Shown here in pieces: positions 4,253 through 15,028 of a DNA stretch of 35,053 nucleotides. The position numbers and the translations under genes were made by a program. The stretch spans positions 1 to 35,053 of IMG/VR virus record IMGVR_UViG_3300037195_000566. One strand, 5' to 3'. The notes below the pieces were generated by a model. That model saw only the letters and a list, made by a program, of their open reading frames with translations, was not told where the DNA came from and did no database searches. This DNA comes from a virus. Its lineage: Duplodnaviria; Caudoviricetes. Position 1 is the stretch's first letter. Every line of letters starts with the position of its first letter.

Positions 4253-4633
4253 TTAAAACTGATTATTAAAATCACCATCATTACTTGACGGTGTAGCTTC
4301 CTTAGATTCTTTAGGTGAAACCATTTTGATTACACCTGAGTATCTTGGAACAACTACTTCTGTTACATATCTTTGATTGTCATTAGCATCTTTATAAGAT
4401 CTAGTTTCAATCTCGCCTTCAACATATAACATAGTACCCTTTTTAGCATACTTGCCCATTGTATCTGCGATACGAGGATCAAATACTACAATTTTATGCC
4501 AAGTAGTTTTTTCTTCATCTTTAAACTTCTTGTTAGTTGCTAAAGATAAATTAGCCATGCTATCACCTTTTTTAGTTTGCTTAACTTCAGGATCAGCACC
4601 TAATCTACCTACTAGGATTACTTTATTTATCAT
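4253..4633 (-). CDS. ssb: Single-stranded DNA-binding protein
   Basis: MINKVILVGRLGADPE, TTWHKIVVF, KG..LYVEG.I.TR.Y.D, YVTEVV; short acidic tail ending in F. Confidence 0.96.
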   Translation of the reverse strand: MINKVILVGRLGADPEVKQTKKGDSMANLSLATNKKFKDEEKTTWHKIVVFDPRIADTMGKYAKKGTMLYVEGEIETRSYKDANDNQRYVTEVVVPRYSGVIKMVSPKESKEATPSSNDGDFNNQF

Positions 4634-5144
4634 CTTTCTTACTCCTTAATTTAGAAGGATCTATTACTTTTACATTACTTTCTCCAGTAGATCCATTAGA
4701 ACTGAATTTAGTTTTCATTTCTGAAACATATTTATTATTGTCAAACATTCCAAGAAACACATCTGCATTAAGACCTAAATAACTAAATGCTTTAGTTAAT
4801 GCGTCAGTAGATGCTTTTTTACAAGCTTCATCATCTAACGTACCTGCTTTTTTATACAAAGCACACACACTAGATATTGGGCCAAAAGCATACCATTGTT
4901 CATTTTCTTTCCATTGAACAATAACTTCAGCAAATACATTTTGATCTGTATATGTAAAAGTATTTTTAAATCTCCAACCTTTACCAACTGGGCCAAATAA
5001 TCCTGTCATACACATAACTTGCGACATAGGATCAATAGTGGTTAAAGTTTTTCCAAATTTAGGAAATGGTTTTGTCCAACTAGGATCTGTAGATTTTGCT
5101 TTATCCCAAATATAATAGTTTTTTTGTTCACCTATTCTAGCCAT
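4623..5144 (-). CDS. Sak/Rad52-like single-strand annealing protein
   Basis: FGPVGKGW and DEACKKASTDALTKAFSYLGLNADVF; sits between exonuclease and ssb as in phage recombination modules. Confidence 0.75.
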   Translation of the reverse strand: MARIGEQKNYYIWDKAKSTDPSWTKPFPKFGKTLTTIDPMSQVMCMTGLFGPVGKGWRFKNTFTYTDQNVFAEVIVQWKENEQWYAFGPISSVCALYKKAGTLDDEACKKASTDALTKAFSYLGLNADVFLGMFDNNKYVSEMKTKFSSNGSTGESNVKVIDPSKLRSKKDDK

Positions 5145-5481: not shown

Positions 5482-6079
5482 TAAATTCCTTTTCGTTAAA
5501 ATTATCAAAACCAATATAATCAGGTGGAGCTTTCTTTTTTTCTACAAAGTGCCAAAATAATACTTCTGCGTTTTCTAATTTTTCTTGAAATTCTTTATCT
5601 GCAGTAACTTCCATTACTTCATATTTAAGATTGCCAAAAAATATAGAAATATACACTCTCTTACTTGCTACACACATTAAGTAGTGCTGTATTTGAGCTT
5701 TATATTTATCAGCAACTTTTTTAGGATTACTAAATGCGTTAGTATGTTTACATTCTAAAATAGAAACACCATACTTCATATCACTTGGATCTTTTTTGTC
5801 AGGCATAATTAATCCATCTACATGAGCATACATAAATTTATATTTTGGATGAAAAAATGTTTCTTGTTTACCATGTACTTTTAAACCAGTTTGTTTTTCA
5901 AACCATCTAATATTAAGATCTTCAGTATGTATTCCCATTTGAACAGGTAACACATTACTTAAATCAGGGTACTCGGACTTACCAAGCTTTTCTTCCCATA
6001 ATTGATACCAATCACCTTCATATAATCTTGTTGCATCAGATCCACCAATACCTTGTTTTCTATCAAACTCTTTATTCAT
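5441..6079 (-). CDS. YqaJ/lambda-exonuclease family nuclease
   Basis: RKQGIGGSD, G...E, AHVDG, LECK, QIQHYL. Confidence 0.9.
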   Translation of the reverse strand: MNKEFDRKQGIGGSDATRLYEGDWYQLWEEKLGKSEYPDLSNVLPVQMGIHTEDLNIRWFEKQTGLKVHGKQETFFHPKYKFMYAHVDGLIMPDKKDPSDMKYGVSILECKHTNAFSNPKKVADKYKAQIQHYLMCVASKRVYISIFFGNLKYEVMEVTADKEFQEKLENAEVLFWHFVEKKKAPPDYIGFDNFNEKEFNEDRTIIPVVSRN

Positions 6080-6492
6080 TAATTTTCTCCTATTTTATTT
6101 TTTTTTAAAAATCTCCAATATCCTAATATTGTTTTTATTCTTCCATTAGGTAATTCTACATCTCTCTTTTTTTTAACCCACACTTTATAAAACCTTGCAT
6201 CATTATTATGACCTATATTATATTTAGGATTCCATTTCTTAATAAGAATCTTTTCCCATTTTTTACTTAAATAATCCGATTGACTTTCAATATAATAATA
6301 ATGAGTATATTTTTTATAAGGTGTATAATTATTAAACGGATCTTGTCTTCTTCTTTTACCTTTATGTGCAACTAATCTTGAATTAAGATGTAATGTTTGT
6401 CCTATATATATAATTTGTTTTTTATTAAATAAAAAATATAAATAATATTGCTTAATATTTTTACTAATTAATTTATCGTTATTTATATTCAT
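6079..6492 (-). CDS. Free-standing GIY-YIG nuclease
   Basis: YYLYFL, IIYIGQT..L..RL..H, E..LI....P.YN. Confidence 0.78.
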   Translation of the reverse strand: MNINNDKLISKNIKQYYLYFLFNKKQIIYIGQTLHLNSRLVAHKGKRRRQDPFNNYTPYKKYTHYYYIESQSDYLSKKWEKILIKKWNPKYNIGHNNDARFYKVWVKKKRDVELPNGRIKTILGYWRFLKKNKIGEN

Positions 6493-7491: not shown

Positions 7492-7776
7492 TTATTGTAT
7501 TTCCACCTGCTTATTAAGGACTGAAACGGATGACTCCGATGCCTTAAATTCATTAATTAAAGCTGAAAATTCATTTATTTTCCAACCATATACATGACAT
7601 AGTTTAAGTAATTGATGAGCAAATATCCTATTTGTTCCATTCTCAAATTTTTGTATCTGTTGAAAACTAACTTTTAATGTTTTAGCTAATTTTGATTGTG
7701 TGAGTTTATCTTTATTTCTAAGTGATTTAAGATGCTCACCGATTTTATTATTATATTCATTTCTAGCTTGTTTCAC
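7492..7776 (-). CDS. XRE-family HTH regulator
   Basis: IGEHLKSLR...LTQSKLAKTLKVSFQQIQKFENGTNRI, an alphaproteobacterial-type XRE signature. Start likely GTG 7776 after AAGGAAAGG. Confidence 0.88.
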   Translation of the reverse strand: MKQARNEYNNKIGEHLKSLRNKDKLTQSKLAKTLKVSFQQIQKFENGTNRIFAHQLLKLCHVYGWKINEFSALINEFKASESSVSVLNKQVEIQ

Positions 7777-8263
7777 GCAAAACCTTTCCTTTAATCTCAC
7801 TATAAATTTTATGATTATTTGGTTCTTTCCAAAAAGAACTTTTAGTTAATCTAGTTTTTACATAATGTAATACAGAAGTATGATCTTTATTTAAAATTCT
7901 AGCTATTTCTGGATAGGTTAGAGCAGTACATTCTCTCATTAAATTCGCTATCATAGATCTCGATATTACTAGATATTGATATCTATATTTACCTATTAAT
8001 TCAGATCTTTGAACTTGGTAATATTCAATAACTTTATTAAATATTATTTCTGCAATTTGTTGATTATTAATTATTGGGCCAGGTGGTACATCATGCTTGT
8101 ATTTAACTATTACTTTTTGAACTTTTTGTTCGGCAGCACTACCAGCTCGATAACCATTTCTGAAAGCATTTCTATATAAAGCTATTTCTCTAGTAGATAA
8201 TCCATCAAGATGAGATACTTTTCTTGCCATAGAATAAACATGTTTAAAGTCCATTATATTCAA
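7763..8263 (-). CDS. Protein with DnaA C-terminal (domain IV) DNA-binding domain and no AAA+ domain
   Basis: V.EYY.V...EL.GK.R....V..R......L.RE.T.L.YPEI..ILNKDHTSVLH matches the Bac_DnaA_C pattern. True start may be ATG 8254. Confidence 0.85.
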   Translation of the reverse strand: MNIMDFKHVYSMARKVSHLDGLSTREIALYRNAFRNGYRAGSAAEQKVQKVIVKYKHDVPPGPIINNQQIAEIIFNKVIEYYQVQRSELIGKYRYQYLVISRSMIANLMRECTALTYPEIARILNKDHTSVLHYVKTRLTKSSFWKEPNNHKIYSEIKGKVLRETS

Positions 8264-9008: not shown

Positions 9009-9192
9009 TTTTAATCTCCTTTAATTGTTTAATATCTAAATTCTCACAAAGATATTCTAATGGTTTAAACCTAACACCTTTTTTAAATTCAAATGCTCTT
9101 TCAGTACCATCTTTATTTTCTAATATCTCTCCAGTTTCGGTATTAATTAAATAAAATTGAATATCTAATACACACGCATGATAGTTATCCAT
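9001..9192 (-). CDS. Hypothetical protein
   Basis: ORF track; overlaps both neighbours. Confidence 0.55.
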   Translation of the reverse strand: MDNYHACVLDIQFYLINTETGEILENKDGTERAFEFKKGVRFKPLEYLCENLDIKQLKEIKNG

Positions 9193-10153
9193 ATAGTTCT
9201 CCCCAATAATCAGATCTCATCATTTCTGCGACTTGTTTTTCTCGTTTTCTTGATACGTTGTGAACTGCTCCTCTAGTGATTGGGTTGGTTGCCCAGTCAG
9301 TAGCTGTTTGGTAAATCGCAAAAACTGTAAAACCGTATTTGTTACAATACTGATTCCATAAGTGATCCAAATGCTTAAGGACAAGCATACTGTTGTCATC
9401 AATATCAAGCTTTGTTTTGCGGCTTGCCAAAGTTTTCCTAAATAAGTGAGTTGTTGCTGCATTAGTAACCTTTCTTTGCATCATTTTAAATAGATCTTCA
9501 CCTAATTCCTTATGAGCTGTAACACCCATTTTAAAATCATTCATAGTGAAAGATATATCTCGTTTATCGTTATGTTTATTATAGACAACAAATGTCCAAT
9601 CAGGTCTTACCATTCCATTTAAACAAACTACATAAACAGAAGACCACATGATTTGTTGGCCCCATCTACCATCCATAGATGAATAGATTCTTAATTGTGG
9701 TATGATTTTTTCTTCAGTACCCTTGATATGAAATCCACCATCTTTATAGTTGTTTAAATCAATAGCATCATCCCAAAAATTAATTGTACGGATAAACTTT
9801 CTACCACCTTCAAGAACTTGATCTTTAGGTGTAATAGTAAATCTTTCGTAATCAGGTACAGCTTCAACAATTACTTCGTTAACCTTTTCTGCTAACTCAG
9901 CATACGGTCTTACAATGTAATCATCTGTATGAATACCAAGTAATTTACCATTATCTTTTCTTACTAAAGCATATTTATTTACTGGTATATATTCTTTATT
10001 TTCATATATTTTACCAGCATACATATCTTCAATTAAATTCAAATATGTTAACTGTTTCTTCTCTACTTCAAAATACGCACTTTTATCTATTGTGAGTTTA
10101 TTATTCGTCATCTCTATGTTAGCTGCTAAATTCATAACACCTCTTTCTTTCAT
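9185..10153 (-). CDS. DUF932-family protein
   Basis: ALVRKDNGKLLGIHTDDY, S.DG, VC.NGM, H and C-terminal T.FA.YQ..T.W pattern. Start may be 10135 after AGAGGTG. Confidence 0.75.
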   Translation of the reverse strand: MKERGVMNLAANIEMTNNKLTIDKSAYFEVEKKQLTYLNLIEDMYAGKIYENKEYIPVNKYALVRKDNGKLLGIHTDDYIVRPYAELAEKVNEVIVEAVPDYERFTITPKDQVLEGGRKFIRTINFWDDAIDLNNYKDGGFHIKGTEEKIIPQLRIYSSMDGRWGQQIMWSSVYVVCLNGMVRPDWTFVVYNKHNDKRDISFTMNDFKMGVTAHKELGEDLFKMMQRKVTNAATTHLFRKTLASRKTKLDIDDNSMLVLKHLDHLWNQYCNKYGFTVFAIYQTATDWATNPITRGAVHNVSRKREKQVAEMMRSDYWGELYG

Positions 10154-11505: not shown

Positions 11506-11569
11506 TTCTTTCTCCTTTTTAAGTTACACTTATTGATTGTTATCATCACCGCACATTGTGAGTACATCA

Positions 11570-11998
11570 GGGTGAGTAAAATATGAGGTCTAGAATCTCC
11601 AACATATTAAACTCACCACTGATCCCAGACCCATCGGGGGCTAGCAGTTACTCAGATGCCCAATGGATCAGGGATCAGCCCTGTTCTGCCGTTATCTAGT
11701 ATCGGTAGCCTTGCAGAGTCTAAAACTAGAAATCCACTTGCAAGTTTAAATCACGACAACTGATCCCAGACCCATAAGCTAATCGTTTCTGCTCGTTACA
11801 CCCATAAACGACAATGGGCAAACTCATTACCCTATGGATCAGGGATCAGCCCTGGCGCGGTTCCAAGTATTTCTACCATCGCTACTTATCCAGATTCCTT
11901 TATCGCGCTGATCCCAAATCCAACAGGGATGCCATTCGGCAGCAACCCCAAGCGAGGGAGCCAACCAAAGTTGGCGACCGAGCTAGTGTTTTTGCCCC
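11570..11998 (-). ncRNA. Putative structured ncRNA array: repeated conserved stem with variable loops
   Basis: Identical ACTGATCCCAGACCCAT at 11618 and 11759; identical ATGGATCAGGGATCAGCCCTG at 11663 and 11834; degenerate third arm at 11908. G-U pairs favour the minus strand. Confidence 0.6.
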
Positions 11999-12006
11999 TT
12001 TGTTTT

Positions 12007-12023
12007 TTTAGAATAATTCTAAA
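12007..12023. promoter_or_regulatory. ICE-like (Irr-binding iron control element) palindrome
   Basis: TTTAGAA-TAA-TTCTAAA, an exact fit to the TTTAGAA-N3-TTCTAAA consensus. Confidence 0.55.
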
Positions 12024-12029
12024 CACGAT

Positions 12030-12067
12030 AAAAAAAGCCCCCATAGTAATAATTACTACGAGGGCTT
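12030..12067 (-). terminator. Rho-independent terminator
   Basis: Minus strand AAGCCCTCGTAGTAAT-T-ATTACTATGGGGGCTT followed by a T-run, just after the stop at 12079. Confidence 0.8.
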
Positions 12068-12078
12068 AATTTAATAAA

Positions 12079-12585
12079 CTAACCAACCAACTGTTCTTTT
12101 AGTTGATCTTTAAGGAATTGTTTTTGTGCCACATCTACTTTCTTATCTGATGTAGCATTATCTCTTTTAGGTTTAGGAACATAGTCCTTACCAAAAACTT
12201 TCTTATATTCTTTTGCTAAAGTATCTACAATTACTTCAGCTCTACGAATATTAAGCTTTTGGGCTTTGTTTCTAAACAATAAGCTCTCAAGCTTATTTGC
12301 AGAAATCTCAGTTCCTACATCTTCACTTGTAGCTTTCTTAGTTTCTGCAACAGTCTTATCAAATGATGCATTACACATTTCACAATGTCTATAAAAAGCA
12401 CCATAGATACTATCAAAATTCCATTCTGCGATTTTTGACCAATCTTTACACTCAATAAATGGTGTAATAAGACTGCTAATAGCTGTTTGAACCCCAGCTA
12501 TCATATTATTCTCAGATTCATCTAACACTATTTCCATGTTAGCTATTCTTGAATCTGGATCGTCTCTATAAGTTTCAGCACTCAT
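12079..12585 (-). CDS. Hypothetical early protein
   Basis: ORF track; SD AAGGAG. Confidence 0.75.
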   Translation of the reverse strand: MSAETYRDDPDSRIANMEIVLDESENNMIAGVQTAISSLITPFIECKDWSKIAEWNFDSIYGAFYRHCEMCNASFDKTVAETKKATSEDVGTEISANKLESLLFRNKAQKLNIRRAEVIVDTLAKEYKKVFGKDYVPKPKRDNATSDKKVDVAQKQFLKDQLKEQLVG

Positions 12586-12749
12586 ATTGCTCCTTCCATA
12601 TTATTTAATTCAGAGTCAATGTTAGCTAACTCACTAACATCACCCTTCTTAACAGCTTCATCTCTTTTCACTGCTAGTTCTTCAACTCTCTTGATATTTT
12701 TACTATCTTTTGCAATTAAATAGTAATCGAGTAGATCATTAATGTTCAT
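12582..12749 (-). CDS. 55-aa hypothetical protein (not in ORF track)
   Basis: MNINDLLDYYLIAKDSK...MEGAI*; SD AGGGGG; ATGA overlap with the next gene. Confidence 0.6.
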   Translation of the reverse strand: MNINDLLDYYLIAKDSKNIKRVEELAVKRDEAVKKGDVSELANIDSELNNMEGAI

Positions 12750-13026
12750 GAGTACCCCCTAAATCAATTTCACATTCCCATTCATCTTCTTCAGGAAACA
12801 TGTCTTGGAAACATTTATCACAGATACCACTCATCATCATTTCTCTTAAACCTTGAGAAATATAAGAAAAAGCATCTTGGATATATTTTCCTTGATTGAA
12901 TTGAAATAAATCAGAACCTTTAACTGAAACTTTATGCTCTGATTTACACTTAATACAATTCATATCAAAGTGATATTTATGAACTGGATCAAATGTTTCT
13001 TTACTCTTACATCTTAAAAAGTACAT
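12739..13026 (-). CDS. Zinc-ribbon phage protein (first leftward gene)
   Basis: CIKC ... IQDAF......RE...SGICDKCF; SD AAGGAG. Confidence 0.75.
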   Translation of the reverse strand: MYFLRCKSKETFDPVHKYHFDMNCIKCKSEHKVSVKGSDLFQFNQGKYIQDAFSYISQGLREMMMSGICDKCFQDMFPEEDEWECEIDLGGTHEH

Positions 13027-13062
13027 ACTTACTCCTTTAATTAACCCATATCATTTAACACT

Positions 13063-13781
13063 CATGGGATTAGTCGAGCAGTCATCACGAGGCAAAGCTC
13101 AATGATTACATGCGACACAGGAGTCCCTCTTAGGAAATTGTTTACAATTTTCCTTAGAGGTTGCACCTTTAGTGTGCGACTCTCGTGTCCTCGTTCACGA
13201 GCATGTTCATTGAGGCAAACTCGTGCATACAAGCGAGAACATCCCGTGTGTGTGGGGGCCCCATAGAGATAATGAGAAACACAATAATCGCCCCTATCAA
13301 GGAGGTGAATTGCCAAAGGCAAGAGGAACCGTAGGTTCCTGCGATTATGAGTATCGCAATGGTTAAAATCGTAGAGCTGTATAAAAGAGATCGACCCCAG
13401 GGAGATATCTTTTATTTCAAGCTACAGCTCACGATTATAAATCTCGTATGGGGTAACAGAGCGTTGCCTGTGGCAACTCCTTATTCAGATCTTAATGTTA
13501 TCGTTCCAAGGGAGATCGTTAAGAACCGTAGGTTCTTGACAGGTCTTGCCGAGGTCAGTGTTAAATAAAGCCCCCTGTGGGGGGCGTTTAATCTTGTTAA
13601 TTATTTAACATCTGACGAAAGCAAGACCAAGGGAGGTGAGAACCGTGGGCAACGCTAGTTTGCCCACTGTCGAGGAACCGTAGGTTCCTATCTTTCTACC
13701 CTTTGCACAAATCCGAAACGAATAAGTACTTTAAAATAAACGACCAGAGGGAGTGCACCACTTGTGGTTATTTTAAATACT
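13063..13781 (+). other. Large GC-rich structured non-coding element (candidate origin or large ncRNA)
   Basis: Many nested inverted repeats, three GAACC-GTA-GGTTC hairpins and five AGG(G)AG modules; lies between the divergent gene blocks. Confidence 0.65.
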
Positions 13782-13795
13782 TGATGAGTGCAGGA

Positions 13796-13830
13796 TGTGC
13801 GTTGACTAGGCAAATCTTGAGCTATAGTTA
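13796..13830 (+). promoter_or_regulatory. Promoter for terS with upstream TGTGCG motif
   Basis: TGTGCG-TTGACT-17 nt-TAGTTA. Confidence 0.6.
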
Positions 13831-13857
13831 ATGTTAGGGGCAGAATAGAATAACGTA

Positions 13858-14232
13858 ATGAAAGACGAACTAACAGATAAGCAACGAGCATTAGTGGATA
13901 CAATAGTAGCAACTGGATGTACCATTAAGGAAGCTTCTAAAAAGGCAGGATATTCAACGAATGGAAGTGAAGAAGCTGGACGTATAAGTGCTTCTCGTGC
14001 CCTACGTATTCCAAAGGTACAGACTTATATGCAAACACGTATTGCACAAACTCTGGGCCTTGGAGCAGTAAGTGCGAGTAGGAAACTTATCGACCTATCT
14101 AGTGGAGCTAGATCTGAATACGTTCAGCTCGAAGCTTCCAGAGATATACTCGATAGAGTAGGAATGAGAGCACCAGACAAGGTGGCTCACAACGTAACAG
14201 GCGACATTAAGGTTAATATCGACCTGACTTAA
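13858..14232 (+). CDS. terS: Terminase small subunit
   Basis: LTDKQRALV...IKEA.KKAGYS.......S..L..PKV..Y and ASRDILDRVG. Confidence 0.8.
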   Translation: MKDELTDKQRALVDTIVATGCTIKEASKKAGYSTNGSEEAGRISASRALRIPKVQTYMQTRIAQTLGLGAVSASRKLIDLSSGARSEYVQLEASRDILDRVGMRAPDKVAHNVTGDIKVNIDLT

Positions 14233-14403
14233 AAAGTGTCGGTACTACCGACTCTTTGTCCACACCGCTCGGTACGAGGGGTGGGGGCAAAAACACCCAT
14301 CGTTAGATGACTAGTGGAGTAACACACACAATAAGGGTTGTTTTTAGTTCGGTATCGCAGATCTCAAATAATTAGGATCTGCAAAAGGTTCGTTAATATA
14401 TTT

Positions 14404-14553
14404 ATGGCAAAGAAGAAAAATAATTTACTTGCGAAAGAAGTACACGAAAAGAAGTATAAGAAAACTTCTAGTAATAAGAGAAGACCTAAGAAGTCTTCAA
14501 TGAATAAGGGTAAGAAAAGAAGTTTCAAACCTTATAATAGGCAGGGGAAGTAA
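14404..14553 (+). CDS. Very basic small protein
   Basis: MAKKKNN...SSMNKGKKRSFKPYNRQGK; ATG start at 14404. Confidence 0.65.
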   Translation: MAKKKNNLLAKEVHEKKYKKTSSNKRRPKKSSMNKGKKRSFKPYNRQGK

Positions 14554-14810: not shown

Positions 14811-14878
14811 TCTTTAAGTGCGTTTTCATTTATAACCAATCATATAAATAAGATCCTTCAATCAACAACGGAGGATAA

Positions 14879-15028
14879 ATGTTTAACTTTAAATTAGAAA
14901 TTCCAACATACGCAGAATGGAAAGTTCAGTTTGAAAAGTTCTTAAAAGAACAACCTGAACAAGCTAAGAAATATCAAGAACAAATTCAAAAGTTTTGGCA
15001 AGATTTTTTTAAAGATCTTTGGAAGTAA
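14879..15028 (+). CDS. 49-aa helical protein (not in ORF track)
   Basis: Strong SD GGAGGA; MFNFKLEIPTYAEWK...FWQDFFKDLWK*. Confidence 0.7.
   Translation: MFNFKLEIPTYAEWKVQFEKFLKEQPEQAKKYQEQIQKFWQDFFKDLWK

Follow-up and report, generated by a model that had tools for sequence, protein, structure and literature searches.

A modular folded element beside terS in a T7-like podophage and its candidate promoter, likely formed by single-stranded DNA

The locus and its folded element

The stretch of DNA analysed here (35,053 nucleotides, referred to as the window) is the record of a 35-kb T7-like podophage and is ~98% complete. Among named phages, Pelagibacter phage EXVC031P Hodr is the closest (terS 57.7% identical, capsid 58.0%, TerL 66.9%), and the host is likely to belong to SAR11. 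An earlier note on this DNA held that no replication enzymes are encoded: scanning 52 ORFs, we found this to be correct for polymerase, helicase, primase and rolling-circle initiator, with no nicking initiator of the HUH or Rep_trans type among them, but an SSB, a YqaJ exonuclease, a Rad52-like protein (4623–5144), a stand-alone GIY-YIG protein of 137 aa (6079–6492, − strand) and a protein with a DnaA C-terminal domain (7763–8263, − strand) are encoded. No phage RNA polymerase family was detected among the ORFs scanned, the largest of which encodes 1155 aa. A DUF932 protein is encoded at 9185–10153 (− strand); the window contains no exact DnaA box, and two 9-mers with 2 mismatches lie in the region.

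The element (13063–13781) is located between a short leftward operon and terS. The operon (12079–13026, − strand), with genes for proteins of 95, 55 and 168 aa, is the predicted target of the promoter described below; the Shine-Dalgarno sequence of its first gene is found at 13032–13036 (− strand), 27 nt from the base of the first domain of the element, and an intrinsic-terminator-like hairpin closes the operon (12035–12067, − strand). Homologues of the 168-aa gene are present in 79 of 161 loci, including Hodr, making it a conserved partner of the element; the predicted model of its product contains helices only (pLDDT 91.8), with no named family and no informative match in a fold search. On the other side, terS (13858–14232, + strand; Pfam Terminase_2) is preceded by a predicted ordinary rightward promoter, TTGACT-17-TAGTTA (13802–13830, + strand), whose TTGAC-16/18-hexamer arrangement is kept in the clade.

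Several further features were recorded in this neighbourhood. A second GC-rich non-coding element at 11520–12030 consists of cassettes of CTGATCCCAGAYCCAT, a variable spacer of 25–60 nt and ATGGATCAGGGATCAG; the right arm of this repeat is found in ~310 IMG/VR stretches and the partner arm in 88/134 matches, with some tandem arrays and with spacers common between phages. In run X2 its summed depth exceeds that of the flanks by up to 100-fold, contigs of RNA run X20 map here, and its occurrence in the clade is sporadic (the window and L056): it looks like a mobile repeat or array. The palindrome TTAGAAnnnTTCTAA, a candidate operator (12008–12022 in the window; L082:12806; L001:1897), is common to the window, the end region of HTVC010P and Hodr. 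Small hairpins 3′ of terS (14232–14420), 73–90% conserved in many relatives, represent a candidate packaging or regulatory site, and the short ORF region at 14860–15020 displays a 100–200-fold higher summed contig depth in four runs, which we read as a small gene widely common to co-occurring phages.

The fold of the element is real and conserved. All nine nested helices (18 arms) that the earlier note had described were found where it had placed them, and the GC content is indeed raised above the genome background (0.449 versus 0.316). The region 13050–13790 folds better than 20/20 dinucleotide shuffles as RNA and as DNA, on both strands: as RNA with −281.6 kcal/mol (z −11.1) on the + strand and −262.8 (z −11.4) on the − strand, as DNA with −150.3 (z −13.6) and −142.3 (z −14.4), respectively. 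Its non-coding character stands as well, there being no conserved coding signal in the overlapping ORFs: ORF 13062–13322 (− strand) is stop-free in 2/11 near-full-length matches, ORF 13347–13568 (+ strand) has no full-length match among relatives and ORF 13102–13266 (+ strand) has stops in 6/6 matches, whereas the adjoining 55-aa gene used as a control is stop-free in 44/44. No Pfam or PHROG match was obtained for ORFs 13062–13322, 13347–13568 and 13688–13912, and a protein-coding reading was rejected because the overlapping ORFs gain stops in relatives. Searches of the element for tRNA and tmRNA found none, and blastn against phages and 72,556 plasmids returned no match. An assembly artefact is excluded because a single contig crosses the region in run X1, possibly the source sample, and likewise in X2. 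The GC skew switches at the element, an effect confounded with gene direction.

On the + strand, the element can be divided into several parts. Domain A (13063–13250), which in the window is of subtype I, is a long stem with imperfect pairing, interrupted by a symmetric GCAAA internal loop and carrying a variable multibranch cap and, at its base, a conserved CGTGTG (13245–13250). Domain B (13258–13454) is closed by a CCCATAG/TATGGG helix that encloses a variable insert, the copy in the window having a C-GTA-G hairpin (13324–13340) and a C-AAA-G hairpin (13310–13322). The right-hand module (13463–13726) fills the slot that in relatives is occupied by a module shared with inoviruses (module C) and contains two GAACC-GTA-GGTTC hairpins (13521–13537 and 13673–13689), of which the window has three in total, with 4 matches in a pattern search versus 0.22 expected; its GGAGA..AGAAC hairpin is found in 7/82 loci. 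Module D (13730–13777), an A/T stem around AAACGACCAGAGGGAGTG, is also present in L006 and L056.

For comparison we used 80 IMG/VR loci found with the window terS and 80 found with the Hodr terS; a set of 82 loci, many of them incomplete, comprises the first set together with Hodr and the window. In these relatives of Hodr the element is modular and is situated between the short leftward operon and terS: subtype I of domain A is present in 25 and subtype II in 28 of the 82 loci, domain B in 45 (length 40–198 nt) and module C in 32. The domain A subtypes swap between otherwise close phages, and the domain A cap is swapped in a contig of run X7. Covariation was found in subtype I, where 12/29 pairs show changes on both sides (47 cells versus 17 in shuffles), and in subtype II (8/24 pairs), these counts being inflated by the relatedness of the loci, for which reason none of the locus counts given here represents independent events; in subtype I, 92.5% of cells are paired, above 500/500 shuffles and compared to 21–59% in slid controls. 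A long stem by the leftward gene (at least 25 long-range pairs) is present in 75/98 representatives, with 5/25 shuffles reaching 25 pairs. The subtype-I motif was found in 57 IMG/VR contigs; a leftward ORF adjoins the stem in 53 of these loci, the other 4 being incomplete, and hence the folded strand is the template of the adjacent genes. In some loci, L113 and L114 among them, the upstream-gene finder picked an incorrect ORF; these were kept in the counts. No such element was seen in the end region read of HTVC010P, a phage with a similar gene set, no such fold in the intergenic regions of MEP301 and no clear stem in two Rhodospirillales MAG matches (L300, L301). In the relatives L144, L146 and L152, which are without the long stem, an ordinary linear promoter directed leftward is found equally far from the gene.

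Promoter-like arms of domain A and a shared module

The earlier note had not included what we regard as the main feature of the element: the left stem (domain A, 13063–13250) likely rebuilds a sigma-70 promoter from both of its arms, as Frpo does, firing leftward and aimed at the 168-aa gene. In the relatives, the promoter motifs are asymmetric between the two arms. In subtype II the 3′ arm carries TGnTAnnnT 14–19 nt ahead of the stem-base anchor in 14/17 distinct sequences (chance ~0.7%), and in subtype I the same place is taken by TGnTAYAAG in 14/15 distinct sequences, the window being the exception; against this, TGnTAnnnT itself is found in 0/15 subtype-I sequences. The A at −11 has a mean unpaired probability of 0.64 in subtype II, versus 0.16 and 0.25 for its neighbours (18 rows of this subtype only, including the mis-anchored L050 and three alternative folds). 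When scored with weights of our own, the −10 being read in the 3′ arm and the spacing being set by the 5′ arm, the fold-derived promoter exceeded the mirror arrangement in 30/43 cases (p 0.002) and in 42/54 of the Hodr set (p 6e-7); in this independent set (n = 54) TAnnnT was found 33 times versus 9 for the mirror, and high scores 17 times versus 1. A conserved linear leftward promoter was not found, with the best scores at shuffle level (13/43 and 27/55 above the shuffle mean), unlike the linear rightward terS promoter, which is conserved in the clade. Stem-poor loci have a linear promoter instead in 4/10 cases versus 8/65, a borderline difference (p 0.048; Spearman p 0.10).

The copy in the window is weaker. 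Its predicted non-template −10 hexamer in the 3′ arm is TACAAG (13228–13233), without T at −7, and an extra C (13226), bulged out in the fold, displaces the TG ahead of it (13224–13225). The template arm facing the −10 (13079–13084), located from sequence, folds and an alignment, reads as no −10 on the − strand, and 13080–13083 form a mismatched 4×4 bubble against 13229–13232. The putative −35 at the template-arm position 13103–13108, placed from the register in relatives and weak in subtype I, reads TAATCA on the − strand (3/6 matches). These deviations count against a promoter in the window, as does its best fold-derived score of 13.1 versus 14.3 for the mirror. In its favour, T at −7 is found in only 12/39 of the terS promoters of this clade and subtype I is in the same register as subtype II; loss of T−7 occurs in alphaproteobacterial promoters. 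We infer that the weaker subtype of the window works like its sister subtypes.

Module C is found well beyond this clade. Model R1 of the module gave no match in the window, where another module replaces it; a model built from the clade alone finds the Pf copy (E 2.8e-5) and nothing in the window. Of at least 120 loci listed from the scan (~240 estimated), 36 belong to this clade, 39 are Pf-type and 45 fall elsewhere. The module is present in 21 Pf filamentous phage records, just upstream of gene V, and in 50 plasmid records, one beside repC, with none in E. coli genomes by blastn. Among the loci listed it lies on the gene V strand in 44/44 and on the terS strand in 36/36. For the other loci, where of 62 candidate ORFs 35 were compared with Pfam and 18 with PHROGs, it shares the strand of Rep_trans (3/3), Zot (2/3) and related unnamed PHROG families (15/15); microvirus L508, the Zot locus L498 and L500, in which module C is opposite to the genes, count against this pattern. 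Across inoviruses, a microvirus and alphaproteobacterial plasmids, module C is a widespread and apparently undescribed folded signal, and is a candidate for the complementary-strand (minus-strand) origin of Pf phages; the accessible part of the Pf replication paper (PMC4863604) does not mention it, nor did a sequence search of papers reveal it. Copies are located in the Pf prophage record AY324828, at L480:2554–2646, and near 5000 in L481 and L482.

Taking these observations together, we consider it reasonably probable that the element functions as + strand ssDNA, in which the left stem would be a sigma-70 promoter only when folded and the right part a complementary-strand priming signal. A site for ssDNA priming only, of the primase or primosome type and with promoter-like hexamers that are either incidental or part of a rightward duplex promoter, would also account for mini-hairpins as in the G4 and ssiA sites, for module C lying on the inovirus coding strand and for the weak promoter features in the window's subtype. 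It appears rather unlikely in view of how the hexamers are arranged: given a −35-like hexamer on the template arm, TAnnnT is concentrated on the 3′ arm at a spacer of 16–18 counted on the opposite arm (35/352, versus 33/1310 at other spacers), and with the same anchoring the template arm itself exhibits 4/352. Furthermore, TTGACA-17-TAGGTT exists solely in the fold in L139, L142 and L145, where the linear spacer is 47 nt, and the −12 partner lies ~36–70 nt from the leftward ATG in most loci.

Strand and loop types

The earlier note had assigned G-T wobbles to the + strand: this effect is modest in the window alone, where z is alike on both strands and the DNA MFE structure has 2 G.T pairs on each strand, but clear across relatives. 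In a strand-neutral census of 43 representatives, 66 isolated G.T versus 8 A.C were found on the + strand, with 55 versus 21 in 55 representatives of the Hodr clade, and the + strand is more stable as DNA in 38/43 and 45/55 representatives, respectively. Loops of the cGNAg type are found in 30/372 hairpins on the + strand, with 2 on the − strand and 0.7 in shuffles, and in 10/321 of the Hodr set versus 0.8 in shuffles; GCGNAGC was counted 28 versus 1 times in the first set and 23 versus 1 in the Hodr set, and the cUUCGg loop 0 times on the + strand in both. Loops are exchanged within one module (GAA, GTA, GCA, AAA, TTT, TTTA). A − strand reading of the C-GAA-G and C-GTA-G loops as UUCG/UACG was rejected on the basis of the triloop register and the swaps to GCA, AAA and TTTA. 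GNA loops define DNA mini-hairpins and are present in G4, ssiA and N4 sites; such mini-hairpins bind SSB poorly, and the related GCGAAAGC hairpin, when made of RNA, already melts at 39 °C (in portions of PMC13037366). Because of its hairpins with DNA-type C-GNA-G loops, the element likely acts as folded single-stranded DNA and not as RNA.

The multi-domain + strand structure proposed in the earlier note is thus supported, and of the possibilities it had named the ssDNA or ssi-type folded origin is favoured by the loop spectrum and by the module common to filamentous ssDNA phages, with the large-ncRNA or ColE1 RNA II branch not being supported. A structured + strand RNA, either a large ncRNA or a ColE1 RNA II-like pre-primer, would be compatible with the multi-domain fold and its G.T pairs on the + strand, with the lower RNA energy on this strand in 38/43, with GNRA loops (6 in the first set, mildly enriched versus 1.2, and 3 in the Hodr set) and with an extended −10 in the 3′ arm that could fire rightward from duplex DNA. 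However, the loop spectrum is the opposite of that in terminators from the same loci (30:6 versus 1:16, p 7e-8): 86 control hairpins outside the element display cUNCGg 7, GNRA 9, cGNAg 1 and cTNCg 3 times, the 4/86 with cGNAg or cTNCg loops counting against the DNA-loop argument. Such an RNA is also unlikely given that Rfam returned nothing relevant at gathering or E-value thresholds, that domain A starts so close to the leftward Shine-Dalgarno sequence, that a promoter scan gave no + strand site and that a module is common to ssDNA phages. No contig of RNA runs X19 and X20 lies over the element; with contigs only and thin cover of the phage, this speaks neither for nor against an RNA.

Folded ssDNA remains the preferred reading, and two back-to-back duplex promoters or operators appearing as an inverted repeat, perhaps an N4-like cruciform with no free ssDNA stage, are improbable. 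The divergent gene layout would suit such promoters, and duplex activity could occur in four loci that count against a purely fold-derived promoter: the template arm of L015 and L034 scores 18.0 as a linear leftward promoter, a fair value, and the 3′ arm of L061 and L064 comes close to a perfect linear promoter pointing rightward. Yet G.T exceeds A.C on one strand, hairpins are extruded from one arm only in L092, L139, L142 and L145, a plain inverted repeat would have no use for multibranch caps or strand-specific mini-hairpins, and no phage RNA polymerase was found among the ORFs scanned. A reading as a packaging signal (pac/cos) or as accumulated mobile REP-like hairpins is very improbable: the element does adjoin terS, and contig ends accumulate upstream of this gene (11/80 at 0–300 nt and 10/80 at 300–600 nt, with at most 5 per bin downstream), which is no proof of termini because mosaic variation explains it equally well and contigs run through, but in runs X1, X2, X5 and X6 there are contigs that cross from the element to terS, with no fixed genome end evident, the spacing is fixed to the leftward gene and not to terS, and the subtype-I motif occurs at this site only (terS downstream in 55/57, the other 2 contigs ending early).

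Proposed mechanism and known systems

For the combination of promoter and priming signal on folded ssDNA we infer the following course of polymerase binding and priming, and the following source of the ssDNA. The + strand would most likely be freed by displacement during rolling-circle or recombination-started replication, in which the exonuclease, the Rad52-like protein and SSB could start strand displacement, and GNA mini-hairpins may keep SSB and 3′ exonucleases off the freed strand. In domain A the −10 would then come from the 3′ arm as non-template strand and the 5′ arm would serve as template and set the −35 spacing, with the mismatch or bulge at or near −11 pre-opening the promoter, and host RNA polymerase would transcribe down the stem, leftward. 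The transcript would be the mRNA of the short operon ending in the 168-aa gene and could also prime − strand synthesis; the region would become duplex through priming at the right-hand module, which would switch the promoter off. Resection at entry is a bolder alternative for the source of ssDNA. We counted in favour of this scheme that SSB, YqaJ exonuclease and a Rad52-like protein are encoded without polymerase, helicase or primase, and against it that no rolling-circle initiator was found among the ORFs scanned, that module C is missing from the window and that the element was not seen in the end region read of HTVC010P. Rolling-circle replication has been proposed from gene content for a related pelagiphage (in sections of PMC10504331), and the replication of SAR11 podophages without polymerase genes is described as an open question (in sections of PMC8477408 and PMC10504331).

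The closest functional parallels are the Frpo/ssp single-stranded promoters of the F and ColIb-P9 leading regions (sections of PMC9849209, PMC11541004 and bioRxiv 10.64898/2026.01.09.698686; Masai and Arai 1997, as cited there), where the Frpo transcript primes complementary synthesis and the stem acts as a road-block (bioRxiv 10.64898/2026.01.09.698686, in part). The element shares with Frpo a long ssDNA stem predicted to rebuild −35 and −10 (clear in subtype II and the Hodr clade, weak in subtype I), a folded strand that is the template of the adjacent genes and, as proposed here, a transcript that could prime complementary synthesis together with a switch-off by duplex conversion. In contrast to Frpo, it belongs to a tailed dsDNA phage, where we found neither relaxase nor rolling-circle initiator, and not to a conjugative leading region; it is without a blastn match in the plasmids searched, is capped by GNA mini-hairpins and in some copies needs hairpins extruded from the non-template arm.

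The M13 minus-strand origin (PMC7948647, in part) and the G4 origin and RSF1010 ssiA (PMC13037366, in part) are complementary-strand origins of ssDNA replicons. With these the element has in common folded ssDNA with GNA-type mini-hairpins and, in relatives though not in the window, module C on the coding strand as in Pf and other inoviruses; it differs in that its replicon is a 35-kb T7-like podophage with no initiator found. Another complementary-strand origin of ssDNA replicons is ssoA. The hairpin promoters of the N4 virion RNA polymerase likewise involve GNA-capped DNA hairpins in transcription of a dsDNA tailed phage, but these are 5-bp stems read by a phage enzyme (portions of PMC13037366), while the element has a stem of 120–300 nt with sigma-70-like boxes and no phage polymerase encoded. 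By analogy, the element would work like Frpo and single-strand origins without being a member of either group by context or sequence. ColE1 RNA II and the large ornate phage RNAs GOLLD and ROOL resemble it in size, multi-domain fold and intergenic position; the element differs from them by its lack of an Rfam match and by loops of DNA type rather than RNA type.

Host-polymerase ssDNA promoters have so far been described from conjugative plasmids and ssDNA replicons, and our searches of the open-access literature turned up neither a tailed dsDNA phage with such a promoter nor an account of the element. Our reading would imply that viruses regarded as double-stranded throughout pass through a single-stranded stage. 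Only tentatively would we extend this to an abundant family of marine dsDNA tailed phages having an obligatory single-stranded stage with no known initiator (for example through resection of the entering end, by the host or the phage), a fold-only sigma-70 ssDNA sensor gating one conserved gene and a priming off-switch borrowed from filamentous ssDNA phages; if true, this would be the phage counterpart of a plasmid leading region. The results also point to a candidate minus-strand signal common to Pf phages, other inoviruses and alphaproteobacterial plasmids. Hodr on HTCC1062 offers a cultured pair for a direct test, as Hodr carries the same type of stem. In the Hodr clade (L001:5643–5830, L086–L102, L294) the stem extends further, with the complement of the leftward Shine-Dalgarno sequence pairing with an AGGAG-like stretch, and in L294 the stem spans ~300 nt.
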